A stretch of 64,000 bases of DNA from an uncultured Thermodesulfobacteriota bacterium. Its GTDB lineage: Bacteria; Desulfobacterota; BSN033; WVXP01. The notes beneath the pieces were generated by a model that did not search any database, had not been told where the DNA came from, and saw nothing but the letters and a program-made list of their open reading frames with translations. Where the stretch lies: contig CAYFYO010000002.1 in assembly GCA_964347335.1 (NCBI GenBank), forward strand, positions 4,911-68,910, in the 5' to 3' direction. Position numbers and translations under genes: made by a program. Of the stretch, positions 30,181-63,307 are shown one piece after another (position 1 is the first letter of the stretch; the number at the start of each line of letters is the position of its first letter).

Positions 30181-30782
30181 GGCCCTCTTCGCCTTTTCAC
30201 CTCTTGAGTGATTTCGAGAAACTCCACTTTCTTTTCAACGAGAAGCACAAAGAGATGATAGAGGACATCGACGCTTTCTTCGATGAGCCGCTTTTTGGAT
30301 TCGCGCTTCGCCGCATGGATCACCTCTCCCGATTCCTCACCCACTTTTTCACAGATTCTGTTCAGGCCTCTCGCAAAAAGGGAGGCCGTGTAGGAGCCCT
30401 CAGGCATCTTTTCCTTACGCTCAGCAATGACAGCATACAGCTCATTGAACATGTCATGTCCCTTGGTGGTGCGAAAGCACGATGTCGAACCTGTATGACA
30501 TGTGGGGCCCTGTGGTGAGACTTGAACCAGGAGGGCGTCCCCGTCGCAGTCAGCCTGCACTTTGACCAAATCCAAAGTGTTTCCACTCGTTTCACCCTTC
30601 ATCCAAAGCCGTCCCCTTGACCGACTGTGAAACCAAACCCGGTTTGTCTGGAGTGTCCTTTCCAGCGCTTCCTGATTCATATAGCCGAGCATCAAGACCA
30701 CGCCTGTTTCCGCGTCCTGAACAATGGCAGGGATCAGTCCATTTTCCCTTTTCCAGTTGAGTTCGAGTCTCGTCTGTTTCAT
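30177..30782 (-). CDS. hisIE: bifunctional phosphoribosyl-AMP cyclohydrolase / phosphoribosyl-ATP pyrophosphatase
   Basis: HisI block ([19 protein letters not shown]) followed by a HisE-like C-terminus. The start overlaps the upstream stop as ATGA. Confidence 0.85.
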
Positions 30783-32911
30783 GACCGAATCGGTATGTTA
30801 TTCTCGCTGAGATAGGCCTTCAGTTCGGGAATTTCAAGCTCCCGGTAATGAAAGAGACTGGCCGCAAGTGCCGCATCGGCCTTTCCCTCGACAAAAGCTT
30901 CCAAGAAGTGGACCTTTGTTCCTGCTCCACTGGATGCGATAATTGGAATGCTCACGTTTTCGGAGAATGTCCGCAAGAGCTCAATGTCATAGCCATTCTT
31001 CATGCCGTCTTTATCGAGAGAGTTCACCAAGAGCTCTCCCGCGCCCAGACTTTCCATCTGTCTCGCAAAGGCAACCGCATCAACTCCAGTCGGCTCTTTG
31101 CCACTTTTGATATACAGCTCCCAGTGATCGCCCCTCCTTTTTGGATCAATGGAGATCACGATGCATTGGGAGCCGAACTGCTCGGCCGCAGCCTTCACAA
31201 AGCCGGGATCCTGCACCGCCGCCGAACCGATGGACACCTTATCAGCTCCGCATTTGAGGAGATTTCTGATCGTCTGGAGTGACCGAATTCCGCCACCTAC
31301 GGTGAACGGAATGTTGATGTTTTGAGAGATCCTTCTCACCAGATTATAGAAGGTGTCTCTATTTTCCACCGTCGCCATAATGTCGAGATACACAAGCTCG
31401 TCCGCTCCCATTTCACTGTAAAGCTTACCGAGTTCGACAGGATCACCGGCATCTCGAAGCTGAAGGTAGTTCGTACCCTTGACAACTCTCCCCTCTTTGA
31501 TATCCATACACGCGATGATCCGCCTTGCCAGGCTCGCCCGTCCTCCCGAGGTTTCTTCAAATTCGGTGCATACGGGAAGCTCTCGTTTCGCCCACGCCCT
31601 GAGATCGACTTTACCCTCATAGAGTGCTTTGCCGATGACAACGCCCCAAGCCCCCATACGATCGAGCTTTCTGACATCCTCGTCCGAGGAAATGCCCCCG
31701 GCGACAATGATGCGAAAGGGGGATTCGAGCACCTCCTCGATGAACGCAAAATCTGGACTCTTGAGCGTTCCGTCTCTCCGGATATCTGTCAGAATGACGA
31801 ACTCGACGCCGAGTCCTCGCAAATCACGGAGAAAATCGAATAAGGTTCTCTCGGCCGTTTCCTGCCAGCCTTTAATTGCGACCTCGCCATCCCGCACGTC
31901 AACCGCCACGACGATGCGACTTTTCCCGTATTTGCTGATCAACCGCTCGATGAGCCGGGGATTGGCCAAAGCCGAGGTTCCCAGAACAACCCTTCTCACC
32001 CCACCTTCGAGGTAGCTCTTCGCGTCTTCATAGGTTCTGATTCCACCCCCAACCTGTACGGAAATATTCAAAGATCGTGTGATTTTGAGAATCTGCTCCA
32101 TGTGCCCTGGCGTGCCCTCTCTCGCACCATTCAAATCGACGATGTGGATGATGGAGGCCCCATGGTTCTGGAAGTTGACAGCCTGCTCATGTGGATCCTC
32201 GGAGTAAATCGTGCGCTGGCTGTAATCGCCTTGAATGAGCCGGACACATTTACCGTCGAGAAGATCCAGCGCGGGAATCACCTCGATCTTTCCCGCTTTG
32301 CGAAGCGGCACTTTGCAGAAATTGTAGAGGAGCTTGAGACCAACCGGGCCCGATTTTTCCGGATGAAACTGAACGCCATAGAAATTGTCTTGCCTGAGGA
32401 TCGCTACGAATTCTTGCCCATAAGCTGATTTGCCCAGAGTCACACGTTCGTCAGCATCGACATAATAGGAGTTAACGAAGTAGAAATATGAGCCATCGGG
32501 AATTTCACTGAAAAGGGGATCCTCCTGGATTTGGTGCACGGCATTCCACCCGATCTGAGGAACCTTAATTCTGAGTTTTGGACCCTTATCCGTTACGAAT
32601 CGGTTGACCCTTCCGTCGACAATCCCGAGGCAGGTTGTATTGTCTTCTTCGGAAAAGGGCAGAAGAAGCTGCATGCCTAAGCAAATACCGAGAAACGGCA
32701 CCTTGACGTCCTTGATCACCCTATCGAGGTGCTTTTTCTTCAGTTCCCTCATCGCTGGAGCTGCCCTTCCCACACCCGGGAAAATCACTCGATCGGCCGC
32801 GCTGATAATGTCCCGGTCGGCCGTGACCGTATAGGTTACCCCCAGTGAGTCGAGGGCATTGGTTACCGAGGCGATATTTCCCGACCTGTAATCGATGACC
32901 GCAACTTTCAT
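30779..32911 (-). CDS. hisHAF: tri-functional fusion HisH (glutaminase) - HisA (ProFAR isomerase) - HisF (IGP synthase cyclase)
   Basis: HisH motifs GICLGMQ...FHPE. His[15 protein letters not shown]...GGGIR. His[16 protein letters not shown]...GGGIRS...IASSGAG. All three lie in one 710-aa polypeptide. ATGA overlaps occur with hisB upstream and hisIE downstream. Confidence 0.85.
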
Positions 32912-33969
32912 ATGACTCCCTTCGTTGATGGTAAGGAATCTTCCAGACGACGGTCCGGTTCGCACGCTATTCTCAAAGCCCGCCCAAAGGCCTTGAAGAT
33001 GGCCTCTATTTTATGATGCTCATTTCTGCTGTACCGAACGTTGACATGGATGTTCGCTCTAAGGGACTCAGATAGTGATCGGAAAAAATGTTCGACCATT
33101 TCTGTCGGGAGATCTCCGACTTTCTCGCGCTTGAATTCACAGCTGAAAACGAGATAAGGCCGGCCACCCAGATCCAAAGCGACTTCTGCCAATGTATCGT
33201 CCATTGGCAATAGAAAACCATATCGTGAGATCCCTTTTCTCGGGCCTAATGCTCTCGAGATCGATTGGCCCAGGGTCAGACCAACATCTTCGACCACGTG
33301 ATGTTCGTCCACGTTTGAAACGGCCTTGGCTCGGATTCTCAGGTCTATGAGCGAGTGTTTGGAGAGCTGCTCCAGCATGTGGTTGAAGAACTTCAGCCCA
33401 GTCTCGATCTGAAAGTCTCCTGTTCCATCGAGGTTGCATTGGATGAATACATCCGTTTCCTCGGTCTTTCTTTCTACATTGGCCAGCCTTGGAAAGGAAC
33501 CATTCGTTTGCATCCTGACTCCCCATACACCGAGATTTCTGGCAAACTCCATATCCGCTTCCCGATCACCGATCATGATCGATCGGTCGAGACCGACCTT
33601 TTGTTGTCGGAGAAAATCTTGAACGAGACCGGTACGAGGCTTCCGGCAGTCGCAGTCATCCTCGGCAAAGTGTGGACAAATGAGGATTCGATAGAATTCG
33701 ATTCCTTCCTTTCTGAGCAGCTCCAGGAGCCTCTTCTGAGGCCTTTGGAAGTCTGCTTCTGGAAAAGAGGAGGTCCCCCGACCGTCCTGATTCGAAATCA
33801 TCACCAACCAATACCCTTCCTCTTTGAGCCGCTTCAGGCCTCCCACAACACCCGGAAGCATCCTCACCTTTTCAACCAAGTCGATCTGTCTCGTATCGGG
33901 TGGCTCGAAGATCAGCGTCCCGTCCCGGTCAAGGAAAGCGATCTTCAGTTCTGACGATAAACCTGCCAT
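32908..33969 (-). CDS. hisB: bifunctional histidinol-phosphatase (HAD) / imidazoleglycerol-phosphate dehydratase
   Basis: N-terminal HAD motif FLDRDGT. C-terminal IGPD motifs (ETDV..., HHVVED, RYGF). 353 aa. Confidence 0.85.
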   Translation of the reverse strand: MAGLSSELKIAFLDRDGTLIFEPPDTRQIDLVEKVRMLPGVVGGLKRLKEEGYWLVMISNQDGRGTSSFPEADFQRPQKRLLELLRKEGIEFYRILICPHFAEDDCDCRKPRTGLVQDFLRQQKVGLDRSIMIGDREADMEFARNLGVWGVRMQTNGSFPRLANVERKTEETDVFIQCNLDGTGDFQIETGLKFFNHMLEQLSKHSLIDLRIRAKAVSNVDEHHVVEDVGLTLGQSISRALGPRKGISRYGFLLPMDDTLAEVALDLGGRPYLVFSCEFKREKVGDLPTEMVEHFFRSLSESLRANIHVNVRYSRNEHHKIEAIFKAFGRALRIACEPDRRLEDSLPSTKGVI

Positions 33970-39525: not shown

Positions 39526-40239
39526 ATGGATATTATCAGAATCGAAAGCGTCGACAAAATCTTCGGGAAGATAAACGCGCTGAGGGGCGTCTCATTAAAC
39601 GTTCCCGATGGGTGCATTTTAGGCCTGATTGGTCCGAACGGCGCTGGCAAGACCACTTTACTCAACACCATCAACGGGCTCTACAAGCCTGACGGTGGGC
39701 ATATATATTTCGAGAATCGGGATATCACCCAAATGGAAATCTACGAGATCGCCCAACTGGGGATTTCGAGGACCTTTCAGATTGTAAGAACCTTTCGCCG
39801 GTTGTCGGTGATTGAGAATATGTTCGCCGCCACGATCTATTCCAAACATGAGAGTCGCTTTCATTTGGGACGGGCAGAGGCTCTCCTCGCATTTGTCGGA
39901 CTTCTGGAAAAGAGGGATCAGTACGCCTATGAGCTTTCCGGTGGACAGCAGAAACTGCTGGAGTTCGCCCGCGCTCTCATGCCAGACCCCAAGTCTATAC
40001 TTATGGACGAGCCCTTCGCTGGGGTTCATCCCGAGATAAAGGGTCAACTCCGAGACAACATCAAGGAGATGAATAAGAAGGAGAAGAAGACCTTTGTTGT
40101 CGTCAGTCATGACATGGAATCGATCGAGGATTTGTGTAATCGCTTAGTTGTATTGAATATCGGTGAAAAACTGACCGAGGGGTCGACCCAGGACGTCTTG
40201 TCCTCAAAGAAGGTCATCGATGCCTACCTGGGAGAGTGA
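39526..40239 (+). CDS. livG: branched-chain amino acid ABC transporter ATP-binding protein
   Basis: Walker A GPNGAGKTT, signature LSGGQQK and Walker B LMDEP. Confidence 0.85.
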   Translation: MDIIRIESVDKIFGKINALRGVSLNVPDGCILGLIGPNGAGKTTLLNTINGLYKPDGGHIYFENRDITQMEIYEIAQLGISRTFQIVRTFRRLSVIENMFAATIYSKHESRFHLGRAEALLAFVGLLEKRDQYAYELSGGQQKLLEFARALMPDPKSILMDEPFAGVHPEIKGQLRDNIKEMNKKEKKTFVVVSHDMESIEDLCNRLVVLNIGEKLTEGSTQDVLSSKKVIDAYLGE

Positions 40240-40955
40240 AAAAGATGCCCCTGGAAGTCATCAATGTCACTGTTGGGTACCATCGGGATGTCTATATCCT
40301 CAACGAGGTCTCTGTAAAGGCAAAAGACGGTGAAATCACGTGTATCATCGGGCCCAATGGTGCTGGCAAATCAACACTGCTGAAAACCATCTATGGTTTT
40401 CTCAAACCTCACAGAGGAAGCGTCATTCTCGACGATCGGGATATCACCCGTCTCATGCCTTACCAGACTCTCGGTATGGGGATCGCTTATATTACCCAGG
40501 ACGGTGGGATTTTGTTGGATATGGATGCCGAGGAGAATCTAGAACTGGGTGCCTGGCTATTCAAAAAGAATAAGGAGCGCGTCAAAAGGAAAATAGCCGA
40601 GATCTATGACAGATATCCCGTGCTCAAGGAGAGGAGCGGGGTGAAGGCACGCCAACTCAGCGGTGGGGAGCAGAGGATGCTCGAGTTGGGAAAGGCGCTC
40701 ATGAATGACCCCAGGGTAATCCTCTTCGATGAGCCAGTCGCTGGGTTAGCGCCTGTGGTCGCAAAGGAGATCTATGGGGAGATTGAGAAGCTAAGAGATG
40801 AGGGGCGAACCATCGTGTTGGTTGAACAGAACGTCAAGAAGGCTCTCGCCATTTCGGATTACGCCTATGTGATCGAATTGGGGAGGGTTCAATACCAGGG
40901 GACCGAAGATCAAATGGAACTGAGAAAGATCGTGGCGCCCTGGTTGAGGAAGTAA
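40236..40955 (+). CDS. livF: branched-chain amino acid ABC transporter ATP-binding protein
   Basis: GPNGAGKST, LSGGEQ, LFDEP. Overlaps the livG stop by 4 nt. Confidence 0.85.
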   Translation: MKKMPLEVINVTVGYHRDVYILNEVSVKAKDGEITCIIGPNGAGKSTLLKTIYGFLKPHRGSVILDDRDITRLMPYQTLGMGIAYITQDGGILLDMDAEENLELGAWLFKKNKERVKRKIAEIYDRYPVLKERSGVKARQLSGGEQRMLELGKALMNDPRVILFDEPVAGLAPVVAKEIYGEIEKLRDEGRTIVLVEQNVKKALAISDYAYVIELGRVQYQGTEDQMELRKIVAPWLRK

Positions 40956-40969
40956 GCGCTGTCTGTCTA

Positions 40970-41917
40970 TCACTTGAATTTACCTCTCAGTCTCGGCACG
41001 CTCTCCTCCAGGGCCCCGATAATTCCGTGGCGCATAAACACGACGATCCCGCCGAGAATAAAGCCCAAGATGATGAGATGGGAGAAGGGCGACTTTGCCC
41101 ACACAAAATCCTCGATAAGATAGAGGATCACCACACCGATCAGGGGCCCGACTAATGTCCCACTTCCCCCAAGCATGGTCATCACGATCACCATGACGTT
41201 TGTCTCAATATTGAATGCCGCTTCAGGGTAGATATAGCCGATATAACAGACGTCCAGGCCACCCGCTATCCCCATAAAGAAAGCGCTCAGGGCGAAAGCT
41301 CTGACCTTGTATCTCGCCGTGTCGATCCCCATCACTTTAGCCGCATCCTCGTCTTCCCTGATGGCCTTTAGGGCGATACCGTGCTTAGAATGGGTAATAA
41401 AGTAGACAACGCACAACAGTATTGCCGCGAGGGCCACCATGCCGTAAAAGCTCACCGTGGGTTTTCGAATCATCGGGACCGGGATCCCGAAGGACCCTCC
41501 TGCCAGCTCATCCGGTACGTTGAAGATCACCACCTTCAGGGCTTCGTTCAGGGCGATGGTGGCGATGGCAAAGTACGCACCCCGGAGCTTCATCAGGGGA
41601 ATCCCGAGGAAGAACGCGGCGAATCCAGCACCCAAGCCACCCATAATCAGCGGAACGATATAGCCATAGAAGGAAAACCCCATCTTCCAAGTTAGAATGG
41701 CGGCAATGTAGCCACCGATGCCGAAAAAAGCCACATGTCCGAAACTGATGTATCCCACATATCCGGCCACGAGATTAAAGCATTGGGCGAGGATAATGTA
41801 CTCCACCAGCAGAAAATAAAAAGTCAGGGAGCGGATACCCGAGAGGGGGGCCAGACCCAAAAAGGCGAGACATCCAACAAAGACGATGATCTCTTTCAGA
41901 CTGTATGTGGGTCTCAT
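40970..41917 (-). CDS. livM: branched-chain amino acid ABC transporter permease
   Basis: Polytopic membrane protein, 315 aa. Convergent with livF. Confidence 0.75.
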   Translation of the reverse strand: MRPTYSLKEIIVFVGCLAFLGLAPLSGIRSLTFYFLLVEYIILAQCFNLVAGYVGYISFGHVAFFGIGGYIAAILTWKMGFSFYGYIVPLIMGGLGAGFAAFFLGIPLMKLRGAYFAIATIALNEALKVVIFNVPDELAGGSFGIPVPMIRKPTVSFYGMVALAAILLCVVYFITHSKHGIALKAIREDEDAAKVMGIDTARYKVRAFALSAFFMGIAGGLDVCYIGYIYPEAAFNIETNVMVIVMTMLGGSGTLVGPLIGVVILYLIEDFVWAKSPFSHLIILGFILGGIVVFMRHGIIGALEESVPRLRGKFK

Positions 41918-41920
41918 TTC

Positions 41921-42811
41921 TCACCGTTCCCTAACGGCACCGAATAGGCCCGTGGGCCTGACAATCAAAATGACGATGAGAAGGATGAAGGCGACAGCCG
42001 GAGAAAGCGCAAAGGATGCGAAGAGGGTCGTTGCACTCTCGGCCAGACCGAGGATGAGACCGGCGGCGAAGGCCCCAATCGGGTTCCCCAGACCACCCAG
42101 TGCAACAACCGTAAAGCACTTTAGGAGATAGAAATATCCGAGAAACGGGGTAACTGGGGAGACGAGGGAGATGAGAACCCCAGCGACCATCGCATAACCA
42201 ACGCCGATACTGAAGGAGATGGCAAATATTTTTGCAGGATTTATCCCCGAGAGCATGGAGACATCTCTACTCTGCATGACCGCTCTGATCGCCTTTCCAA
42301 GGTATGTTCTTTTGAGAAATTGCTGAAGGATAACCCCGCAAATCACCGCCACGACGAAGGTCGCGAGCCGCGACGTCGGAATTTCGATTCCAACAACCGA
42401 GAGTGGCGGCATGACGATCGGAATACCCCTGATGTCTGCTCCCCAGACATTCAGTGCAGCCCCGTAGAGGATGATGGAGACCGCAAAGGTGAAGAGGAGC
42501 GTCATCATCTCCATCTCAAAATCATTCGAGGCAGACGCGATGATCCTGTCGATTACGGATCTGTAAATGAGGATTCCAACGCCCAACCCGATGAAGAGGC
42601 CCAGTACAATCGAGACCAAGGGATGAAGTCCGAGAAATTTGAAGGCCCAGTAGCTGACATAGGCACCGAGCATGATGAAGGCACCGTGGGCGAGGTTAAC
42701 GACTTTCATCACACCCCAGATGAGGCTCAGCCCGAGTGCTGCCAGGCCGTAAACCCCACCAATGAGGAGGCCATTGATGACAATCTGTAGGATTTCCCTT
42801 AAACCGATCAT
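41921..42811 (-). CDS. livH: branched-chain amino acid ABC transporter permease
   Basis: LivH-like permease, 296 aa. Confidence 0.75.
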   Translation of the reverse strand: MIGLREILQIVINGLLIGGVYGLAALGLSLIWGVMKVVNLAHGAFIMLGAYVSYWAFKFLGLHPLVSIVLGLFIGLGVGILIYRSVIDRIIASASNDFEMEMMTLLFTFAVSIILYGAALNVWGADIRGIPIVMPPLSVVGIEIPTSRLATFVVAVICGVILQQFLKRTYLGKAIRAVMQSRDVSMLSGINPAKIFAISFSIGVGYAMVAGVLISLVSPVTPFLGYFYLLKCFTVVALGGLGNPIGAFAAGLILGLAESATTLFASFALSPAVAFILLIVILIVRPTGLFGAVRER

Positions 42812-43011
42812 GGCGATACTGGTCGCTCAACCCTTCCGTCTCACTTCAGGCCATCTCACACGGGCGGGCGGTCAGGGCGAAGCTCAGAGGGCGGGGACGA
42901 GGTTAAGGCTGATAGGGTCTCTTTACACAGGCACCGTACGGTAGACTCCAGGGGTCAGATACGGCATGACTCAACCGTTCTCCTCGCATCTGACTCCTGG
43001 ATAAGCTATCT

Positions 43012-44262
43012 CTATTCCCAAAAAGGGATCGGATAGACCAGTTTCGCTTCTGCGAGACTGAGCGGCCAGACAACAACCAATTTACCGTCTTGCCATTGGG
43101 GGACGACCATCTCGTGGCCCACTTGAATGCCTGTCTCTGGGTCGATCTTGCAGCGCCCGTAGAAGGACATGAAGTCCATGTCATTGAGGGCCTTCCGGAT
43201 CTTGTCCGTATCGAGGCTACCACTCTTTTCAATGCCCCACTGGAGAGCGAGACCCGCCTGAAAGATCTGGGTTCCCCGGAAATCCGTTGGTTCTCCCCAC
43301 GTTTTCTTGAACCATTCGTTGAACGCTTTTCCCGTCATCTTGGGGCCATACCAATTGGGGAATTTTGCCGGATCTGGGGCGTCGACTGGTTCCCACTGTG
43401 ATGTGGAGATATGATAATTAGCGGCACTCCCCAGGGTCTTCCACCACTCGGTGGTAGAGGGGGCAGATCCAAACCCGATCAATTTCGTGTAGACTTTGTA
43501 TTCCGCGATCTGCTTGGCCAGCAATGCCCCATCCTTGAAGTGGGAAGCGGCCAAAATGGCATCCTGATCGGCCCCCTTCACCTTCGTCAATATGGGTGAA
43601 AGATCCGTTGGATGAAGAGGGTACACCTCATGAAACACCTCTTCAAATCCCAAGACCTTAGCCCACATCCTGATGCCATCCCTTATGGAGAGGTTAAAGG
43701 GGTTGTCCTCGACAATGATTGCGATTCTTTTGACCTCGGGTTTTAGTTTCGCCATCATCTCCATGGCGCTCATGTAATAGCGAGTCGATGGTGTGAGAAC
43801 ACCGATCACATACTTCCACCCCCGGTGATAGATCTTGTCCGAGGCCCCGGCATGAATAATCATGAGCTTCCCATACCGCTCGGTAACCGAAGCAGCGGCC
43901 ATGTTCAAGCCACTTCCATAAGGGCCGAGGATGTAGTCGACCTTGTCTTCAACAATCAACCTTTCGATCATCTTAACGGTAACGCCCTTGTCACTCTTAT
44001 CGTCGTACCAGACCAGCTCGATGGGGAGTTTCTTTCCGAGCTCCTTGACGTGAATGCCGCCTTTTTCATTCACCCACTGGGCCCACAATTTCGAACCCCA
44101 GAGCTCCCGTTTGCCGAATACATCATACTTCCCGCTCATGGACAGGGACATCCCAACCTTGATTGCATCCCTGTCCGCCCACGAAGGGGAAACTGCTCCG
44201 AAGGTCAAAACGCTCAAGATGAGAGCCAATGCAAGCATGATAACCAGGTATTTTTTCCTCAT
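43012..44262 (-). CDS. ABC transporter substrate-binding protein, Leu/Ile/Val (type I PBP) family
   Basis: Signal peptide MRKKYLVIMLALALILSVLTFGA. 416 aa LivK/J-like. Stop is TAG. Confidence 0.75.
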   Translation of the reverse strand: MRKKYLVIMLALALILSVLTFGAVSPSWADRDAIKVGMSLSMSGKYDVFGKRELWGSKLWAQWVNEKGGIHVKELGKKLPIELVWYDDKSDKGVTVKMIERLIVEDKVDYILGPYGSGLNMAAASVTERYGKLMIIHAGASDKIYHRGWKYVIGVLTPSTRYYMSAMEMMAKLKPEVKRIAIIVEDNPFNLSIRDGIRMWAKVLGFEEVFHEVYPLHPTDLSPILTKVKGADQDAILAASHFKDGALLAKQIAEYKVYTKLIGFGSAPSTTEWWKTLGSAANYHISTSQWEPVDAPDPAKFPNWYGPKMTGKAFNEWFKKTWGEPTDFRGTQIFQAGLALQWGIEKSGSLDTDKIRKALNDMDFMSFYGRCKIDPETGIQVGHEMVVPQWQDGKLVVVWPLSLAEAKLVYPIPFWE

Positions 44263-45249: not shown

Positions 45250-46297
45250 CCAAAGGGGTCAAGTCTGCTCTTGACTCTTTTTCAAGACCGCCATAAGCCT
45301 TTCAACTCTTTCCCTCAGGTTTCGATCTTTGTCAATGAGGGCCCTCATTCTCTCAATGACGCTACTGACCGAACTGTATTTGCCAATGTGAAACTCTTGG
45401 CCAACTTGTTTTAGACCGTCACCTCGCAGCCGTCGAGTCAAATAGATCGCCACGTTTCTCGGCTGATTGAGTGTCCCTCTTCTGGATCGCAGGAGATCAG
45501 ATTCACTGACCCCGTAAGACTCGCAAACAACCCTTTTGATTCGATCCGGATCAGGTGCAAGTTCTCTGAACTGGGGGACCTCATCATCGACTTCCCTGGG
45601 GAAAAACCTCCCTTTTATTCGATTGAGAAAAACCTCTGAGCCCAAAAGCGACGGCCACTTCTTACTCTCGAATATCTGGGCGATCTCTGCTTCATCTTCC
45701 AAAGACACAAACTCCCGGTACCTCCTTACCCTTTCCGTCTTTCTCTGAGATAACATGGAAAGGATATATACCTTGTGGAGCCAGTTCCATCTCTTTGCAT
45801 CCGATAAATAGCCTTTATGGCTACTCCAATCGTATCTTTCGAGCTTTTCCGCTAGGCCTGCCCTCAGGGGGTTTCGGTGAATGTATCGGACCAGTTGCAG
45901 TAGATAGCTTTCAGCATCAACGAGAATCGACTTGTATCGACCCCGAAACAGTTGTCCGTCACTCTGGTGAAGGCGGTTGTAGCGCTGGGTGTAAACACCA
46001 TCGATGTGTCGCATACATCTGGATATATTACCATCCGGGGTCTGGACGAGAAGATGGTAGTGGTTGGGCACCAAGCAGTAGGCCGCAACCCGAAGATTCC
46101 AGATCTCAGCGGTTTTCTTGAGAAGATGAACAAAAAGCGCGTAGTCCCGATGACTCCGAAATACGGGCTCACCCCGTCTCCCGCGGTTCATCACATGATA
46201 CCATGCATCTCGATACTGTATTCTCAGTGGCCTGGACATGTGGGAAGCGGTATCACAAAGATTCGATAAGAGTCAAGAGCAGACTTGACCCCTTTTT
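45250..46297 (-). mobile_element. REP-associated/IS200-like tyrosine transposase (RAYT) element bounded by 28-bp perfect inverted repeats and flanked by 7-bp direct repeats AGGAGTC
   Basis: Left IR 45252-45279 AAAGGGGTCAAGTCTGCTCTTGACTCTT is the reverse complement of right IR 46268-46296. Each IR is itself a hairpin (GTCAAG..CTTGAC). AGGAGTC occurs at 45243-45249 and 46298-46304. Confidence 0.7.
45259..46239 (-). CDS. Y1 HUH transposase (IS200/RAYT type) fused to a DnaA C-terminal-like HTH domain
   Basis: HUH motif VPNHYHLLVQ and catalytic Y region in the N-terminal 150 aa. The C-terminus VAIYLTRRL...YSSVSSVIERM resembles Bac_DnaA_C. The stop codon sits inside the left IR. Confidence 0.75.
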   Translation of the reverse strand: MSRPLRIQYRDAWYHVMNRGRRGEPVFRSHRDYALFVHLLKKTAEIWNLRVAAYCLVPNHYHLLVQTPDGNISRCMRHIDGVYTQRYNRLHQSDGQLFRGRYKSILVDAESYLLQLVRYIHRNPLRAGLAEKLERYDWSSHKGYLSDAKRWNWLHKVYILSMLSQRKTERVRRYREFVSLEDEAEIAQIFESKKWPSLLGSEVFLNRIKGRFFPREVDDEVPQFRELAPDPDRIKRVVCESYGVSESDLLRSRRGTLNQPRNVAIYLTRRLRGDGLKQVGQEFHIGKYSSVSSVIERMRALIDKDRNLRERVERLMAVLKKSQEQT

Positions 46298-48566: not shown

Positions 48567-51548
48567 TTATTCGACTTGCGCAAGGGGACTCTGCCAGGCC
48601 TCTTTCAGGGATTGAATATAGGTCTGGACAATCGTCTTTCCCCCAAGACCCGTCAGTTCGAATCGATCATCCTGCCTCACTGTGCCGACAGGGGCATAGG
48701 CTTGCCCCGAGAATATCCTGTCGAAGGCGTCCCTGGCTTCGGGGCAAACGGTGACAACGAAGCGACTCTGAGATTCGGAGAAGAGAAGAAAATCGTCTCG
48801 TTCGACACCTTCTGTGGGGACCTTTCTCAGGTCTACCGTCATCCCTAAACCTCCTGAAAAAGCCACCTCTGCAAGGGTCACGGCAAGACCGCCGTCAGAA
48901 CAATCATGACACGAACCCACCAAACCCTCCTCAATGGCCCTGTGAAGGGCCCTGTAGAGGAGGACTGCTTTCTCGGGATCGACGATAGGAACTTGATTCC
49001 CCATGTGCCCTTTGCTCGCAAAATACTCAGACCCACCGAGCTCATTACGGGTCACCCCCAACACATAAACCAGGTCATTTGGGCTCTTGCAATCGGCCGT
49101 CACAGCCTTCCGGACATCGTCTATCTTCCCAATAATGGAAAAGAGAACCGTAGGAGGAATGGATATCTTCACTTCGCCGATTATGGTGTCGTTCTTCATG
49201 CTGTCTTTCCCGGAAATGAGGGGAATGCCGTAGGCAACCGTATAGTCGTAAAGGGCCTGGTTTGCCCGGACCAACTGGGCTAACTTATAATGACCGTCTG
49301 GCGTCTTTTCCGACTGGACTGGATCACACCAGCAGAAATTGTCCAAACCTGCCATCCGATCGGGCCGTCCACCCACAGAGAGTGCATTCCGAACCGCCTC
49401 ATCGATGGCGCACGCCATCATCCAATAGGTATCAATATCGCTATACCTCGGACAGATTCCATGGGAAACGACGACCCCCTCCATCGACCCCAAGACGGGG
49501 CGGAGGACAGCCGCGTCATTCGGACCGTCGCTCTCGACACCTCCGAGGGGCTTGATCACGCTCCCTCCCTGAACCTCATGATCATACTGCCGAATCACAC
49601 TCTCCTTACTGCAAACATTCCATCGGCCGAGGATCTCACTTAACGATGAGGTGAGGTCCTTGGGCTCTGAAAAAGCGGGCTCCGAGTGGACCGGACGGCT
49701 CCATCGCGCCTCGAGCTGCATTTTTGGGAGGCCCTCATGGAGAAAATCCATAGAGAGGAGACCAACAGTTTGACCCTGATAGAGAATATGAAAGCGACCG
49801 GTGTCGACGAATCTCCCGAGGACCGTGGATTCCACGTCCATCAGTCGAGAGAGCTCGAAAAACTCATCGATTTTTTCCGATGAGACAGCCAAGGTCATCC
49901 GCTCTTGTGCCTCGGAAAGCAGGATCTCCCACGGATCAAGCCCTGAGTACTTCAACGGGGCTTTATCCAGATGGAGTTCGCACCCGATATGACGTCCGGT
50001 CTCTCCCACCGAACTCGAAAGCCCCCCTGCTCCGTTGTCGGTGATGGCCTTATAGAGGCCCCGATCTCTCGCGATGAGAAGGAAATCGGTCATCTTTTTC
50101 TGTGTGATGGGATCTCCAATCTGGACGGCCGCTGTGGGAGATTGCTCGTGGAGTTCCTCCGAGGAGAAAGTGGCTCCATGGATCCCATCTTTTCCAATTC
50201 GTCCTCCAACCATGACAATAAGATCTCCTGGATCGACCCGCTTGATGTGGCTCTCCTCTCCCAGGATCCTCCGGGGAATAATGCCACCCGTGCCGCAGAA
50301 GACGAGTGGCTTTCCCGCAAATCGATCATCAAAGACGATGCTGCCGTTGACTGTCGGAATCCCGCTTTTGTTCCCTCCATGCTCAACGCCCTCCCGTACA
50401 CCTTCGAAAACTCTCCGAGGGTGGAAGAGTCTGGGGGGGAGGGACCCCTGATAGTCTGGCGGTGCGAAACAGAACACATCGGTATTGAAGATGAGCCTCG
50501 CCCCCTTCCCAGTTCCGAAGGGGTCCCGATTGACCCCAACGATTCCGGTAAGGGCACCACCGTAAGGATCCAGAGCCGATGGGGTGTTGTGGGTTTCCAC
50601 TTTGAAGACTAGGCTGTAATCCCGGTTGAATTCCACCACACCTGCGTTGTCGTGGAAGACCGAAAGGCACCAGTCTGCCGGTCCAAGACGTTCCCTGATG
50701 CTTTCCGTGGCTCCCTTGACAAAGGTTTCGAATAGGCTATCGATCGTTGTTTTCTGACCCGCGTCGTCCCAATAATCGATCAATGCATTGAATATTTTGT
50801 GCTTACAGTGTTCAGACCAGGTCTGGGCCAAAGCCTCGATTTCCACATCCGTGATCTGACCATCCAAAGCCTGAGCCGCTCGCTCTTTCCCCACCCGAGG
50901 GTCTCTCAGATACGCCTGAATCGCCTTCATCTCGGTGAGACTGAGTGCGAGAAGTCTCTGCCGGCTGATTTCCATAAGTGTATCATCGCCCACCTCGAGA
51001 CTGATTCGCTCGACTGCGTGTCGATCCGCCCCCTCGACCTTCGGAACAACCGGATGGAAGCGGTCGCCCCTCTCCCACATCTCACGATCCAAAATATCAA
51101 ACCTCTGAATGAGGGTGTTGCCGAGAAGTGCCGTTGCAATGCTTTCGACCTGCGCCCGCGAAATCTTCCCCGAGATGACGTACTGGGTAGAGGTATAAAC
51201 CTTTTCATTCTCGCCAAAGGACCTTCCCAATCGAAGCATTGCGGCCTCTGTAGCTGTCTTTCCTACATTGTCAGTCACCCCGGGTTTGAACCCCACCTCG
51301 ACCAGCCAGTCAAAGTCCAATGCCAGGGGAGCATCAATCTTGTATAGCTGGCTGACCGGGTCGAGATAGACATCAGAGGCCAGGGCTTCCAGTTCCTCTC
51401 TGGAGAGGCCGGAGTCGACGGTGTAAACATCTATCGTTCGCACGCGTTCGACAGGAAAGCGGAGATCCCGGCCGATCCTCTGCCGAATCCGTTCACCACG
51501 CGCGTCCACAAGATCTGGCTTCAACGCAATTTCAATCCGATGGGCCAT
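48567..51548 (-). CDS. purL: phosphoribosylformylglycinamidine synthase PurL with N-terminal PurS-like extension (993 aa)
   Basis: AIR-synthase-related duplicated domains with the WSEHCKHK.FN motif at about residue 245. About 200 extra N-terminal residues compared with small PurL. No glutaminase domain; purQ lies 47 kb away. Confidence 0.85.
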   Translation of the reverse strand: MAHRIEIALKPDLVDARGERIRQRIGRDLRFPVERVRTIDVYTVDSGLSREELEALASDVYLDPVSQLYKIDAPLALDFDWLVEVGFKPGVTDNVGKTATEAAMLRLGRSFGENEKVYTSTQYVISGKISRAQVESIATALLGNTLIQRFDILDREMWERGDRFHPVVPKVEGADRHAVERISLEVGDDTLMEISRQRLLALSLTEMKAIQAYLRDPRVGKERAAQALDGQITDVEIEALAQTWSEHCKHKIFNALIDYWDDAGQKTTIDSLFETFVKGATESIRERLGPADWCLSVFHDNAGVVEFNRDYSLVFKVETHNTPSALDPYGGALTGIVGVNRDPFGTGKGARLIFNTDVFCFAPPDYQGSLPPRLFHPRRVFEGVREGVEHGGNKSGIPTVNGSIVFDDRFAGKPLVFCGTGGIIPRRILGEESHIKRVDPGDLIVMVGGRIGKDGIHGATFSSEELHEQSPTAAVQIGDPITQKKMTDFLLIARDRGLYKAITDNGAGGLSSSVGETGRHIGCELHLDKAPLKYSGLDPWEILLSEAQERMTLAVSSEKIDEFFELSRLMDVESTVLGRFVDTGRFHILYQGQTVGLLSMDFLHEGLPKMQLEARWSRPVHSEPAFSEPKDLTSSLSEILGRWNVCSKESVIRQYDHEVQGGSVIKPLGGVESDGPNDAAVLRPVLGSMEGVVVSHGICPRYSDIDTYWMMACAIDEAVRNALSVGGRPDRMAGLDNFCWCDPVQSEKTPDGHYKLAQLVRANQALYDYTVAYGIPLISGKDSMKNDTIIGEVKISIPPTVLFSIIGKIDDVRKAVTADCKSPNDLVYVLGVTRNELGGSEYFASKGHMGNQVPIVDPEKAVLLYRALHRAIEEGLVGSCHDCSDGGLAVTLAEVAFSGGLGMTVDLRKVPTEGVERDDFLLFSESQSRFVVTVCPEARDAFDRIFSGQAYAPVGTVRQDDRFELTGLGGKTIVQTYIQSLKEAWQSPLAQVE

Positions 51549-53516: not shown

Positions 53517-55259
53517 TTATCTTTCCTCTTGTGCCATACGGTTATACAACTGGTAAACACTTTCTAGTTGTTGGTCTGTGACATCAAAAACGGTTTGCTT
53601 TGATGACAGGACCTCTTCCCTAAAGAAATCCGGTACTTTATCCACGCGCCTCAATCCCGCTTTTTCGTTGAACGAATATTCTCGAACCAAGGTCTCCACC
53701 CCTATCTGAATCATATCCGCTTTGGAAAAAACTTTTCCATATTTTGCAGTCAGGAAATCTGCGAAGATGTCCAGTGTCTCCAAGGTTGAACCGACGAAAA
53801 AACACACACCCGCCGCATCAATGGATGCCAACATAATCTGAAGCTCCCGAGAGATCACTTCTTGACCTTTCGGGTCCGCCGGTCCTACAACATAGGATGG
53901 ATCAAATCCCGGTCGTCCAGGCAGACAACTGCCCGCAGTATGGTCTGCTCCCATAGGGGACGTGCAGAAGGTTACTCCCATTCCCTTTAAGGCTCTCGGG
54001 TCAAATGCTGGCATTCCTTGACCCTTAACGGTTGGCACCCTGGTCTGACCAAAAACCCTTCCCACGGCCGCCGCTCCACTGCCCACCACTCGTCCCAGAA
54101 CTGTACCCTGCCCGATCTCTTGAACGACTTTGATAGCCCCCCCGCCGTCACCAAACGCCAAATATCCCGATTCCATCAATACACCTAACGCTCCCCCTGT
54201 TTCGATCGTATCAAGCCCAATGTCATCGCACAGCCTGTCCAACTGTGCGATGATATCCAGGTCGTTAACTCCCAGATTTGACCCCAGCATGACAATCGTT
54301 TCGTACTCCAAACTGGTTGTGAGGAACTTTCGTCGCTTATCCATGTAAACGTTGGAACAGGCGATGGTACACCCGGGCATACATGCATGAGTCGGTTTAC
54401 CCTCCCTTTCAATAATCAATTCATGAAGAGTTTCTCCGCTAATCTCATTCGCATGATTAAAACGTCCATCTCTAAAATTCCTCGTTGGGAGCCCACCCGC
54501 CTCATTGATAATGTTGATTGATACGGCGGTCCCATATTTGGAGAGGGCTGTCTTCGTCTCGGCCATTTTCTTCCCAAACTCCCTCGAGAGCTTTACAATC
54601 CTTTCCCTGTCCGAAAAAGATGGGGTAACCGTCTCGGTGGTGTCAAATACGATGGCCTTAATCCCTTTAGAGCCCATCACCGCACCACATCCCCCCCGTG
54701 CCGCATGATGTCCTGGCCTTCCGCTTGTGTCCATCGCGGCGATGCTCGCGGCACCCAATTTCATTTCCCCTGCCACGCCGATAGAAAGAATTCCACTTCT
54801 TTCCCCGAACCTCTCCCTCAGGTGTTGCACAACCTCGTAGTTCTTCATTCCCCACAACTTATCGGCTTTCTCAATTGTGAGTCCGCCTTTGGTGACTCTC
54901 AAAATATGTGCTTCTCTGGAAGTTGGCCTTCCTTCGATAATAATGGCCTTCGTACCAGCTGCGGCCATTCTCTGGCCAGCCGAACCACCAACATTGCTTT
55001 CCTTGATTCCCCCTGTTAAGAGGCTCTTGCACCCTATCGAAAGACGACCGTTGCAGCTGAACGGAATGCCGGCCATATATCCAGTTGCGATTACGAGCTT
55101 ATTCCTTTCCCCGAGAGGATGGCAAAGGGGATCCACCTCATCTGCCACAATCTTTGATGTTAAGGCTCGTCCACCTAGAAGCGTATCCTTCCCACTCTCC
55201 CAATTCTGCTCAATGACTTTCTCCTTACGCATATTTACACGATAGATCTTCTCCCTCAT
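53517..55259 (-). CDS. aldehyde:ferredoxin oxidoreductase (tungsten-containing AOR family)
   Basis: AOR N- and C-domain sequence. Start MREKIYRVNM at 55259 has GGGAGG 6 nt upstream. The ORF-track start is 81 nt further upstream without an RBS. Confidence 0.85.
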   Translation of the reverse strand: MREKIYRVNMRKEKVIEQNWESGKDTLLGGRALTSKIVADEVDPLCHPLGERNKLVIATGYMAGIPFSCNGRLSIGCKSLLTGGIKESNVGGSAGQRMAAAGTKAIIIEGRPTSREAHILRVTKGGLTIEKADKLWGMKNYEVVQHLRERFGERSGILSIGVAGEMKLGAASIAAMDTSGRPGHHAARGGCGAVMGSKGIKAIVFDTTETVTPSFSDRERIVKLSREFGKKMAETKTALSKYGTAVSINIINEAGGLPTRNFRDGRFNHANEISGETLHELIIEREGKPTHACMPGCTIACSNVYMDKRRKFLTTSLEYETIVMLGSNLGVNDLDIIAQLDRLCDDIGLDTIETGGALGVLMESGYLAFGDGGGAIKVVQEIGQGTVLGRVVGSGAAAVGRVFGQTRVPTVKGQGMPAFDPRALKGMGVTFCTSPMGADHTAGSCLPGRPGFDPSYVVGPADPKGQEVISRELQIMLASIDAAGVCFFVGSTLETLDIFADFLTAKYGKVFSKADMIQIGVETLVREYSFNEKAGLRRVDKVPDFFREEVLSSKQTVFDVTDQQLESVYQLYNRMAQEER

Positions 55260-55976
55260 TCTCGCCTCCCTCATGAGGCCATCGGTTTGGTTTCCTTCCT
55301 TCAAAGCAGACAAGTAGGCCTCAATTTCTTCATAAGTCAAAAATCATAATACTGGGTCACCATCTAAGTGAATTACGGGGTGACATTGATCTCAACTCGT
55401 CATCTGGGGCACGATCGCTTACTCTCCTAAACCGCCTCTATCCTGTGCGATACCATTCAAAAAGCCTTCGAGACGCATGATGTCCACGACGGACTTAGCT
55501 GAGTGAGTAATTTCTGTAACAGTCATAGCCATGTTTCGGAGCCTTAGGGTTTCCGTCCCGAATATCTAATTTCGTTCCCTTCATTTCTGGCATATCCCCA
55601 AAAAGATTCGAAGCATTTGGGATTTCAACTGGTCGCTAACTTTATTCCGGACCTTCCCAGGTCCCCCAAAACCTCTTCCAGAGCTGCCTTTGCTGGATCC
55701 GGTTCATCCCCCGTGTCTATATCGCTACGACCCAGTCTGAAGTTTGCGGCCGAATTGTTTTTTCCCGCGGATGCCCAGAGGAGTGCGGCTTACGTCGGCA
55801 AGATGAAACGATGATAGTCTGGTCTGTTTAAGACACGGAATTCACTATGATAGCGAGACCGCGAAGCAGCCGGTACCGAGAACACGACCTGACTCGTTGA
55901 ATTGAATGAATAGCACAATGGACACTGTTGATTCTCGATCCTCCTACTTTCGCAGAGACTTCCAGTCTTAATGGCA

Positions 55977-61367: not shown

Positions 61368-62756
61368 TCAACGCCTACCAATTCTCTTTTTGAACCTACT
61401 AACCGAGTTAATCTCAATGTCTAACAGTTCCGCTATCCTAAACTTCGCATCGATCCCTTTGGCTCGGTTAGGAAGCGATCTTACCAAACCGATATCCAGA
61501 TCGTCTCTCACTTCGGCCATCAATACAGGGTCCGATAGATCCCTAACCGACACGGATAGTCTGCCGGCCACATACTCCTTCGCCTCTTTGATCTTCATAC
61601 CATCGGTCATTTGCATACGTGCCACAAGATCTCCCGCGGTACGCATTCCGCCCATGCCCGAGGCAACGGCGTGAGTTATCGCCATACCCAAAGGATCGCC
61701 TACACCAACCTACAATCCGTCCAACCGACAGATTTCAACCATAGCTTTAGACGCTCGGGATACTGCATCTATTGGAGGGTTGTCCACCACAGGAACCGCA
61801 CCTACGCCCATACCCATGTTCACATGGATCGGAATAGTTGAATTCTCAACACAGGTCTTCACAAATGTCACAGCCCGGGCCAAGTTCCATGGACAGGACT
61901 TGGAGGTATTCGTATTGACTACCGGGCCAAAAATAGTCACCCCTGCTTTTTCAGCCAAGGCGACTTGCTGGTGAGGATACAGCCCCGCTAGCCGTACGCC
62001 CTGATAGGTCAACTCCCCATGCATTCCAAGGATGAACTCGCCGGCCATGCCGATCTCGACACACATGTCGGGGTATTTCCCTTTGAGAATCTCGCAAGCC
62101 TCCAAGGTCGCCAGAAAGTCCGCGTCCCCAGCAGCCCCAGTGGTGTCGAAGTTGATCCCATCAGCCCCAGATTCATACATGCCGCTCGCCACATAAACCA
62201 TATCCTTAACTGCGTGCTGCACAGCAGCTTCGTAGGATGCTCTTGCTTCGACGATTTTCCCTTGAGGGAGTAACTCTGCAGGATTCGGTGTAGGGCCATC
62301 AGGCTGACTGTAGGACCCGAGATTCGGCATGGCTCCATAGAACAAGGGGATGCTTGTCACCAGGAGGGCCTGTTCAAATTCCTGCTGTTCGTCACCCAGA
62401 ATGGTCTTTACGGGTTTAAAACTGTAGTCTATATGGGCCATCTCCATGGTATCGGCCCCCAATGCGCGTTCCATAATTTGTATGTTATGGATTCTCCCGG
62501 TGTTTATTCCTAACCGCTGAAGCTTCAAGGTGCCACCATCAAAAGAAAGGACCACCTCGTTTCCTGGCTCTACACCTACAACTCTCGCTGGAGAAGCACA
62601 GATCTCAAAAAGATGCCCTAATTCGTCCTCCGAAAGGGAAGGAACGTCACCTTTCTCAGCAGCGTCTATCGTCCCTTCCTCCAAGTCCTTGGTTAATTGG
62701 GATTCATCTATTTCGATGAAAGAACCGTCGCCCATCCGTGTGATTATTTTGTTCAT
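61368..62756 (-). CDS. mtbB: dimethylamine methyltransferase MtbB-family homolog containing one in-frame TAG (61710-61712): candidate pyrrolysine read-through or nonsense-split gene
   Basis: N-terminus [11 protein letters not shown]...EIP.LS.DE and internal blocks [76 protein letters not shown]. Then [38 protein letters not shown]... continues in the same frame with no RBS or ATG. Total 462 codons. Confidence 0.6.
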
Positions 62757-62937
62757 AAACAATTCCTTTTTTGTCCAAATCTAGAACTCTTGAAATCTCG
62801 CACAGTGTCACCAGAACAGCCCCAGCCAAATTCGGAGGTTGTTATCAAATGCTCTTCAAACGACAACTCAATAACATATCCTCAACCTTCCGCTTTCGCG
62901 GGAGATCCCAGTTGGAATGGCATCATGGGTTACACCT

Positions 62938-63280
62938 TAATTCCACAAGGGGTCTGTAGGCTTCCGGGACTGATTGCCCCTTCCAATCCTTCATCATCTC
63001 CCGGTATTCAAGTAATTTTGAAATGTCGACGGCCGCTATGGCCATTCTATAGCTGAATTCACCTGCGTTGGCTAAAATCTCACCTATAGGCAGTCAAACA
63101 ATACTCCTGGAGCACGGCCAGTTTTGCCCCTTCCTCCCCAGTTCCCTCAAAAGAGCCTCTGCCTTGCCCAGGTTCTTTTCCTTATCTTTGGGATCCCACT
63201 CGAATTAGATAGCCGCCACTTAATGCCTTAAGTCTTTCCAGAACCTTCACCCCTTCTGAGATTATCCGGATACAAATCGG
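62938..63280 (-). pseudogene. decayed, internally deleted copy of the carbon-nitrogen hydrolase gene (paralog of 55977-56828)
   Basis: 62938-63088 matches 55993-56143 and 63089-63280 matches 56668-56858, at about 88% identity. About 520 bp are missing between short microhomologies (CTCCCCCATCGG / CTCCCATAGG). The frame is disrupted. Confidence 0.75.
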
Positions 63281-63307
63281 CAAACCAGGACTCGTAATAT
63301 GACTTCA

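Follow-up and report, generated by a model that had tools for sequence, protein, structure and literature searches.

A probable pyrrolysine-dependent dimethylamine methyltransferase gene (mtbB) on a bacterial chromosome segment, with a conserved hairpin downstream of its UAG

Introduction

Does a TAG in the middle of a bacterial methyltransferase frame end one protein and precede another, or does it specify an amino acid? The question is raised by a minus-strand locus in a 64,000-nt stretch of contig CAYFYO010000002.1 from an uncultured Thermodesulfobacteriota bacterium; the whole stretch is called the window below. Two open reading frames (ORFs) at this locus resemble the two parts of mtbB, the gene for dimethylamine:corrinoid methyltransferase. 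In this family pyrrolysine (Pyl), encoded by UAG, has a role in the activation of dimethylamine and in passing one methyl group on to the Co(I) of a corrinoid protein. Mass spectrometry of Methanosarcina MtbB detected the mass of pyrrolysine where the UAG is translated and showed the enzyme to be a single read-through polypeptide (PMC2933860); within the family, Pyl incorporation is known for this enzyme only. The first descriptions of Pyl-encoding mtbB genes in bacteria date from 2007 (PMC1976440); such genes are reportedly common among marine Deltaproteobacteria (PMC8318568), and Pyl systems have been reported in Chloroflexi (PMC5424206). An earlier note on this DNA, made from its letters alone, proposed either a bacterial Pyl-containing methyltransferase or a very recent nonsense inactivation. 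We found support for the first and reject the second. On the evidence of its sequence, the locus is probably one intact, functional Pyl-dependent mtbB gene on an ordinary bacterial chromosome.

One reading frame through the TAG

The ORFs at 61710-62762 and 61368-61691 (both minus strand) lie in the same frame. Only the TAG at 61710-61712 and six sense codons (VGVGDP) stand before the TTG at which the second, of 107 aa, was listed to begin. All of this can be read directly from the sequence, as the earlier note had it. Read through the internal UAG, the frame comprises 348 + 1 + 113 = 462 codons followed by TGA (61368-61370), giving a complete mtbB coding sequence at 61368-62756 on the minus strand. 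Its length of 462 residues and the position of the UAG, the presumed pyrrolysine codon, at codon 349 (61710-61712, minus strand) had both been given correctly. The N-terminal 348 codons (61713-62756, minus strand) are called as a stand-alone protein by gene callers; the C-terminal 113 codons (61371-61709, minus strand) lie 3' of the UAG.

The listed upstream ORF measures 350 aa from a TTG and 348 aa from a conserved ATG at 62756. This ATG fits the N-terminal consensus of the orthologs (MxKIxTRMGDGS), and 7 nt upstream of it (-12 to -8) we read a Shine-Dalgarno-like AAGGA (62764-62768, minus strand), at the place where orthologs have GGAGG or AGGAG. The NCBI call of the window gene (P0003, 100% match) begins at Met8, not at the conserved Met1. 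A short stop-to-stop frame lies upstream of mtbB (62753-62880, minus strand), its terminal TGA sharing letters with the start codon of mtbB (ATGA); as it shows neither homology nor an evident start codon, it is probably not a gene.

The TTG of the second ORF corresponds to the Leu of the family motif GDPLGM. Orthologs vary at this residue (L/M/F/A/I/Y/Q/V), so the TTG is no conserved start codon; it also lacks a preceding Shine-Dalgarno sequence, and its earlier reading as an internal Leu holds. An independent assembly, the 1800-bp Logan sequence of run ERR2564004 (L081), was identical to the window over ~1790 nt, TAG included.

The TAG falls on the pyrrolysine column of the MtbB family

Profile searches with the joined product and with each half confirmed that the locus had been assigned to the right family. 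Against Pfam PF09505 (Dimeth_Pyl; cut-off 25 bits) the joined product scored 688 bits, the match spanning positions 4-462 of the 463 in the profile. Searched separately, the N half scored 513 bits (positions 4-353) and the C half 158 bits (positions 355-462); the sole PF09505 column left uncovered between them was 354, on which the TAG falls. The joined product also matched the NCBIfam equivalog TIGR02368 ([dimethylamine--corrinoid protein] Co-methyltransferase) with 571 bits, against a cut-off of 369. Judged by these profiles, the locus is an MtbB-family dimethylamine:corrinoid methyltransferase gene with its TAG on the pyrrolysine column. A search of the PDB with the mtbB product returned no sequence homolog at E <= 1.

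MtbB1, MtbB2 and MtbB3 of Methanosarcina barkeri are the founders of PF09505 and TIGR02368. The window product compares with them at the equivalog level, is of about the same length and has one UAG at the same column. The motif that flanks the UAG, (D-G-L/I)-UAG-(V/I)-G-V-G-D-P, is likewise shared.

The TAG is conserved in all orthologs examined and both halves are constrained

We compared the window copy with orthologs from a genome scan (one genome per species; 80 loci with 91 mtbB copies) and a metagenome scan (96 more copies). TAG occupied the pyrrolysine column in 91/91 genome copies and 96/96 metagenome copies, that is, in 187/187. The sources of this census were Desulfobacterales, other Deltaproteobacteria, Dehalococcoidia, Bacillota, Actinomycetota and one archaeon. 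The orthologs were 57-79% identical to the window copy, 79% being the best value with its own duplicates in NCBI and Logan set aside. Downstream of the TAG the genome copies stayed open for 90-120 codons, nearly all for 108-120, except for two copies cut by a contig end. When 87 read-through products were aligned, the stop fell in the same column in every sequence.

Constraint was similar on the two sides of the UAG. At the columns of the 87-sequence alignment that are at least 95% conserved, the window copy kept 85/85 residues in the N half and 30/30 in the C half (115/115 in total), where the leave-one-out means of the other sequences were 0.985 and 0.981, respectively. Against the closest relatives dN was 0.125-0.215 for the C half and 0.154-0.211 for the N half, with omega at ~0.09-0.18 where dS was computable (not saturated). 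Distances to 41 outgroups were no larger for the window copy than for L001, L002, L003 and L028, which indicates no rate acceleration. The six codons after the TAG (VGVGDP) are among the most conserved of the family. Two signs of a pseudogene had been named in the earlier note, a sense codon in relatives and relaxed constraint downstream; we looked for both and found neither, given a TAG in every ortholog and the low omega. These comparisons indicate that the TAG is ancestral and that the predicted gene is intact, its 113 downstream codons being as constrained as the 348 upstream.

Public databases hold this family almost entirely in pieces. With the C half as query against 1.84 billion representative proteins, 149 of the 150 best clusters proved to be fragments of 48-219 aa called after the TAG. 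The 120 best homologs of the joined protein were all N-terminal pieces of 341-391 aa, nearly all of them 341-350 aa. Standard gene callers split Pyl genes at the UAG, and public calls do so in this family almost without exception; annotation therefore systematically underestimates how far anaerobic bacteria use methylamines.

The only full-length member among the 150 best C-half clusters was P0149 (L162:2487-3878; JGI 3300009373, contig Ga0118719_1032299), a 463-aa MtbB-family paralog that is 40% identical to the window product end to end and has Trp (TGG) aligned to the Pyl/UAG column. Its gene sits in a three-gene set with genes for a URO-D methyltransferase and a B12-binding corrinoid protein. 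The 2007 survey listed no non-Pyl MtbB homologs (PMC1976440). Judged by its aligned Trp and its gene neighbourhood, P0149 is a rare non-Pyl MtbB paralog, a separate paralogous system with its own corrinoid protein and second methyltransferase (MT2) partner.

A conserved hairpin downstream of the UAG

The 100 nt that start at the UAG (61613-61712, minus strand) matched the Rfam family RF02509 (PYLIS_2) with 89.4 bits, against a gathering threshold of 36, over the full length of the model (positions 1-100 of 100). The PYLIS_2 model ('pyrrolysine insertion sequence mtbB') goes back to a prediction made computationally by Have et al. in 2013 (PMC3639795). Like the mtmB element (PYLIS, RF01982), it lies inside the coding sequence downstream of the Pyl UAG. 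According to an earlier review, nothing like PYLIS had been seen in mtbB, and the PYLIS of mtmB is dispensable for Pyl insertion (PMC2933860). In the window, the PYLIS_2 score appears to come mostly from conserved sequence, since the fold energy of the 100 nt from the UAG is unexceptional (z = -0.79) and Rfam hairpin 1 is poorly supported. Hairpin 1 (nt 7-38, counted from the U of the UAG) is not supported as a conserved structure, several of its pairs being mostly non-canonical (e.g. pair 14-31 is GG in 62/86 orthologs). The earlier note had suggested folding this region in search of a conserved stem-loop; the fold energy as a whole was not unusual; a hairpin at nt 67-98 proved to be conserved.

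Synonymous variation reaches its lowest level in the gene right after the UAG, with a normalised codon entropy of 0.68 from codon +1 to codon +34 compared with ~0.90 elsewhere (Mann-Whitney p = 1.7e-4). Codon choice is nearly fixed at Gly+26 (GGA, 86/87), Asp+27 (GAT, 83/87) and Leu+28 (CTG, 81/87).

This stretch of low synonymous variation forms the conserved hairpin (61615-61646, minus strand; nt 67-98), a helix of at most 14 bp closed by an AGAU loop, with its inner 8 bp at 61621-61640. This inner helix (nt 73-92) is continuous over the 8 bp and coincides with Rfam hairpin 2, to which it adds the pair 78-87, unpaired in Rfam. Its cells were 88% canonical, against 17-48% for slid partners, and another 71 distinct sequences from metagenomes gave the same picture (91% against 19-49%). 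The minimum-free-energy fold of the window sequence contains the hairpin, with the helix extended to nt 67-98.

We then examined covariation between positions of the helix. In a shuffle test with 161 distinct sequences, all four wobble-wobble pairs, in which third codon positions face each other (69-96, 72-93, 75-90 and 78-87), exceeded 2000/2000 shuffles. Pair 72-93 uses at least five canonical pair types and was canonical in 133/161 sequences, where 83 were expected. Among 42 disjoint sister pairs, pairing was kept after a single change in 13/31 cases, compared with 9/59 for control partners one codon away (Fisher p = 0.006). On a tree built by the unweighted pair group method with arithmetic mean, pair 72-93 had changed at least 22 and at least 29 times on its two sides and was canonical in 98/122 leaves (controls 33 and 53), and pair 78-87 was canonical in 122/122 (controls 7 and 50). 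Pairs 69-96 and 75-90 were weaker, with one equally good control each. The window itself reads GCG and CTT at two codons that are GCC and CTG in all near relatives, so that C78-G87 has become G78-U87 by two synonymous changes with the pair kept. The pair C77-G88, otherwise invariant, is broken in P0149.

The Rfam consensus, which is largely archaeal, does not support the outer part of the hairpin (a-G, G-a and a-a at 70-95, 71-94 and 72-93), so the helix extension looks like a feature of the bacterial-type clade. In comparison with RF02509, hairpin 1 finds no support in these orthologs; the second helix runs on through pair 78-87, reaches nt 67-98 and covaries at 72-93. The inner half of the hairpin is already modelled in PYLIS_2. 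Taken together, the alignments indicate that the hairpin at nt 67-98 is conserved, with wobble-wobble covariation that spans several bacterial phyla, and under selection at the nucleotide level.

At a distance of at least 64 nt, the hairpin would be too far from the UAG to touch a ribosome that is decoding it. It is conceivable, though we hold the idea only tentatively, that in bacterial-type mtbB mRNAs the hairpin works as a cis-element, acting either on UAG decoding (e.g. on the ratio of read-through to termination) or on the fate of the mRNA after termination. If it does influence how the UAG is decoded, mtbB would gain its first well-supported RNA structure associated with recoding, the novelty lying only in the extension, the covariation evidence and any function. 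The hairpin offers a concrete target for mutagenesis and bears on whether the mRNA modulates Pyl insertion in organisms where UAG is also a stop.

Pyl machinery and the gap upstream of mtbB

The window extends 1.2 kb upstream of mtbB, and the absences reported here hold within its 64 kb. ARAGORN found no tRNA genes of any kind in the whole window. A tRNA-Pyl covariance model, built from 15 tRNA-Pyl genes beside orthologs and run with filters off, reached 10 bits at best (E = 2.6), which is noise. When PylSc, the corrinoid protein, PylB, PylC, PylD and PylSn of the related locus L002 were used as tblastn probes, nothing was found in the window at E < 0.08; for the corrinoid protein nothing was found at E < 0.3, and Pfam detected no B12-binding domain. 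By comparison, a corrinoid (B12-binding) protein is encoded within 10 kb in 49/80 related loci. Neither RamA nor a URO-D (MT2) methyltransferase was among the 53 Pfam-annotated window ORFs. With ARAGORN, the covariance model, tblastn and Pfam all negative, the earlier statement that the window holds no pyl genes, mtbC or ramA stands. The missing machinery is a limit of the window and not evidence of absence from the organism.

L002 is a Dehalococcoidales metagenome-assembled genome (MAG) whose mtbB is 75% identical to that of the window. Its cassette (L002:4466-11386) consists of pylSc, a gene for a B12-binding corrinoid protein, pylB, pylC, pylD, tRNA-Pyl, a 115-aa ORF and mtbB, and similar cassettes were found in L001, L082-L087, L093, L095 and L113. 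The mtbB genes of these nearest relatives are 72-79% identical to the window copy and have the same hairpin. We infer that the 115-aa ORF is PylSn, from its position beside pylT and from a NSKNSRAARWLRN...C..C stretch that we take to resemble the N-terminal domain of archaeal PylRS; a Pfam search with this ORF returned no family. The cassette is compact and apparently mobile. Near-identical tRNA-Pyl genes occur in MAGs labelled Deltaproteobacteria and Dehalococcoidales, which suggests that the whole pylSc-to-mtbB unit has been transferred horizontally.

Linkage to tRNA-Pyl differed with distance from the window copy. Counting copies with enough flank, a tRNA-Pyl gene lay within 1 kb of mtbB in 11/12 at 72% identity or more (the closest clade), in 7/46 at 65-72% (39/46 unlinked) and in 2/56 below 65% (54/56 unlinked). 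An mtbB unlinked to pylT is thus the overall norm, in agreement with the several mtbB copies and one pyl cluster per genome described before (PMC1976440, PMC8318568).

In place of the pylT-pylSn pair of the L002-type cassette, the window has an aldehyde dehydrogenase gene and, between it and mtbB, a featureless gap of 551 nt (62757-63307, minus strand) with nothing recognisable in it. A PylSn hidden Markov model and an nhmmer profile of the pylT-to-mtbB interval found nothing in this gap; as positive controls, the held-out relatives L083 and L116 scored E = 1e-104 and 1e-130. A permissive Rfam scan of the gap and around mtbB gave no match at E <= 1, and promoter and terminator scans around mtbB gave nothing above background. 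A decayed pylSn relic in the gap was considered on account of an ...EFGWGCSG... tail that resembles the PylSn C-terminus (FKRGWGS), and was discarded as a chance resemblance.

TAG as an ordinary stop codon

Stop codons were counted in a greedy non-overlapping set of 56 other ORFs of at least 100 aa. TAG ended 14 of them, which matches the earlier figure of about 14 of about 50 genes. The median distance to the next in-frame stop was 10 codons for genes ending in TAG, 22 for TGA and 29 for TAA (TAG against the others, one-sided Mann-Whitney p = 0.022; n = 14 vs 42, a small sample). The shorter distances after TAG hint at back-up stops, as in a UAG-suppressing organism. Bacterial Pyl users keep TAG as a stop (PMC1976440), and none of these organisms is known to have a mechanism that targets Pyl insertion (PMC12626013). 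The literature fits the earlier expectation that read-through here would need regulation, decoding being either regulated or ambiguous. We also looked for other Pyl candidates among TAG-terminated window genes with long in-frame extensions; none was convincing, and the DUF3047 gene is complete before its TAG.

Proposed decoding and its alternatives

We propose that the UAG at codon 349 is read by Pyl-tRNA(CUA) to give a 462-residue enzyme with Pyl in its active site, and that pylT, pylSc/pylSn and pylBCD are encoded elsewhere in the genome. Pyl would activate dimethylamine, one methyl group would pass to the Co(I) of a cognate corrinoid protein of the MtbC type, and a second methyltransferase would move it on to tetrahydrofolate, feeding the Wood-Ljungdahl pathway. 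In bacteria the methyl group is thought to take this route (PMC8318568, PMC5424206), whereas in methanogens such as M. barkeri it goes to coenzyme M via MtbA. As TAG is a frequent true stop in this genome, decoding would presumably be ambiguous or set by the timing of pyl gene expression, and not by a mandatory signal like the selenocysteine insertion sequence (SECIS). Several findings weigh against the proposal. No Pyl machinery, corrinoid protein, RamA or MT2 methyltransferase was found anywhere in the window; the window copy is an exception within its own clade, having no adjacent pylT-pylSn and no detectable relic of it; and TAG, ending a quarter of the other ORFs counted (14/56), is not depleted as a stop.

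The lack of pyl genes within 64 kb, and of the clade-typical pylT-pylSn directly upstream, would also fit an orphaned or relic gene, whose Pyl machinery was lost or never acquired and whose translation stops at the UAG to give a truncated, probably inactive protein of 348 residues; its intact look would then be due to the loss being recent. There are parallels for such a state, as mtxB genes occur beside incomplete or non-functional Pyl systems in MSBL1 archaea (PMC5424206) and in B. weybense (PMC12626013). We nevertheless consider it unlikely here. The window copy keeps 115/115 conserved residues with no rate acceleration in either half, and the lineage-specific pair of synonymous changes that keeps a hairpin base pair suggests that selection still acts beyond the UAG. 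Most mtbB copies elsewhere are also unlinked to pylT, so that its absence from the window weighs little. The gene callers, for their part, imply a split gene, and almost every database entry is indeed a fragment of 341-350 aa or of ~105 aa. On that reading the 348-aa product and a separately initiated C-terminal product of 105-107 aa would assemble into an active enzyme without Pyl, which we regard as very improbable: no Shine-Dalgarno sequence precedes either the TTG or the ATG of the second ORF, the TTG position varies among orthologs and offers no conserved start, the VGVGDP codons between the TAG and the TTG are among the best conserved of the family, and the active-site residue would be absent. 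Moreover, the archaeal enzyme was shown by mass spectrometry to be one Pyl-containing read-through polypeptide (PMC2933860).

A recent nonsense mutation in a sense-coded gene, or an error of sequencing or assembly, deserves hardly any credence. The Trp codon of P0149 (TGG, one step from TAG) does show that a sense codon at this column is possible in principle, but P0149 shares just 40% identity and is part of a different, paralogous system, while TAG is found in 187/187 orthologs at 57-79% identity and in the independent Logan assembly of ERR2564004, which is identical. The unbroken census, together with the constraint on both halves, leads us to reject a recent nonsense mutation. A Pyl-dependent enzyme encoded by one intact gene remains the reading that we favour.

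Relation to known Pyl systems

Genes of the kind seen in the window are already documented in Deltaproteobacteria, Firmicutes and Chloroflexi (PMC1976440, PMC8318568, PMC5424206). The delta-1 symbiont of Olavius algarvensis, the marine Deltaproteobacteria (PMC1976440, PMC8318568) and the Chloroflexi Pyl systems (PMC5424206) are likewise bacterial and share the conserved mtbB UAG. Several mtbB and mttB copies are typically scattered in those genomes away from a single pyl cluster, and TAG is still an ordinary stop; their pyl cluster was observed, whereas none is visible in the window. Methanogen mtbB is normally paired with mtbC, in contrast to the window mtbB, which has no adjacent corrinoid gene. 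To the bacteria with a Pyl-type dimethylamine methyltransferase the window adds one more lineage, a moderately divergent one, whose mtbB is not linked to the pyl cassette that stands beside the gene in its nearest relatives. The most useful by-products of the analysis are the covariation evidence for the extended hairpin and the rare non-Pyl (Trp) MtbB paralog P0149.

Neighbouring genes and other features of the window

Upstream of mtbB lies the aldehyde dehydrogenase gene, and downstream are genes for an SDR, an APC-type permease, an unknown protein, a metallophosphoesterase, a CN-hydrolase, an aldehyde:ferredoxin oxidoreductase (AFOR) and an FAD oxidase. Pfam confirmed the neighbours described in the earlier note and, with them, its remark that they do not form a canonical methylamine operon. 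Among the 53 ORFs searched, Pfam also recognised the his operon, purL/purQ, ResB, ApbE, UvrD, an ATP-dependent DNA ligase, a Liv-type ABC transporter, an IS200-like gene and others. By its predicted gene content, the window is an ordinary segment of a bacterial chromosome.

We found nothing in favour of a conserved partnership with mtbB for the APC permease, the SDR or other neighbours. Across 160 loci no homolog of the permease stood next to mtbB, and for the SDR there were only weak ones (~34% identity), in 5 loci. AFOR homologs lay within 10 kb of mtbB in 19/160 related loci; the AFOR gene of the window (53517-55340, minus strand) is 6 kb from mtbB. For components of the Liv-type ABC transporter, homologs lay equally close to mtbB (within 10 kb) in 11-25 loci, or in just 3 in the case of the substrate-binding protein, and the transporter genes of the window (39526-44262) are 17-22 kb away. 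These associations may stem from synteny within the clade or from a functional connection, for instance in amine uptake.

Other genes of the window have unusual domain arrangements. A 728-aa ORF in the his operon (30779-32965, minus strand) has two His_biosynth domains as well as a class-I glutamine amidotransferase domain and looks like an unusual HisH-HisA/HisF triple fusion. In a 993-aa FGAM (phosphoribosylformylglycinamidine) synthase (48567-51548, minus strand) an N-terminal PurS is fused to PurL, and a PurQ-like amidotransferase is encoded far off, at 1118-1942. The sole mobile-element-like gene of the window (45259-46239, minus strand), 15 kb from mtbB, encodes a 326-aa protein that joins an IS200-like Y1 transposase domain to a DnaA C-terminal helix-turn-helix domain.

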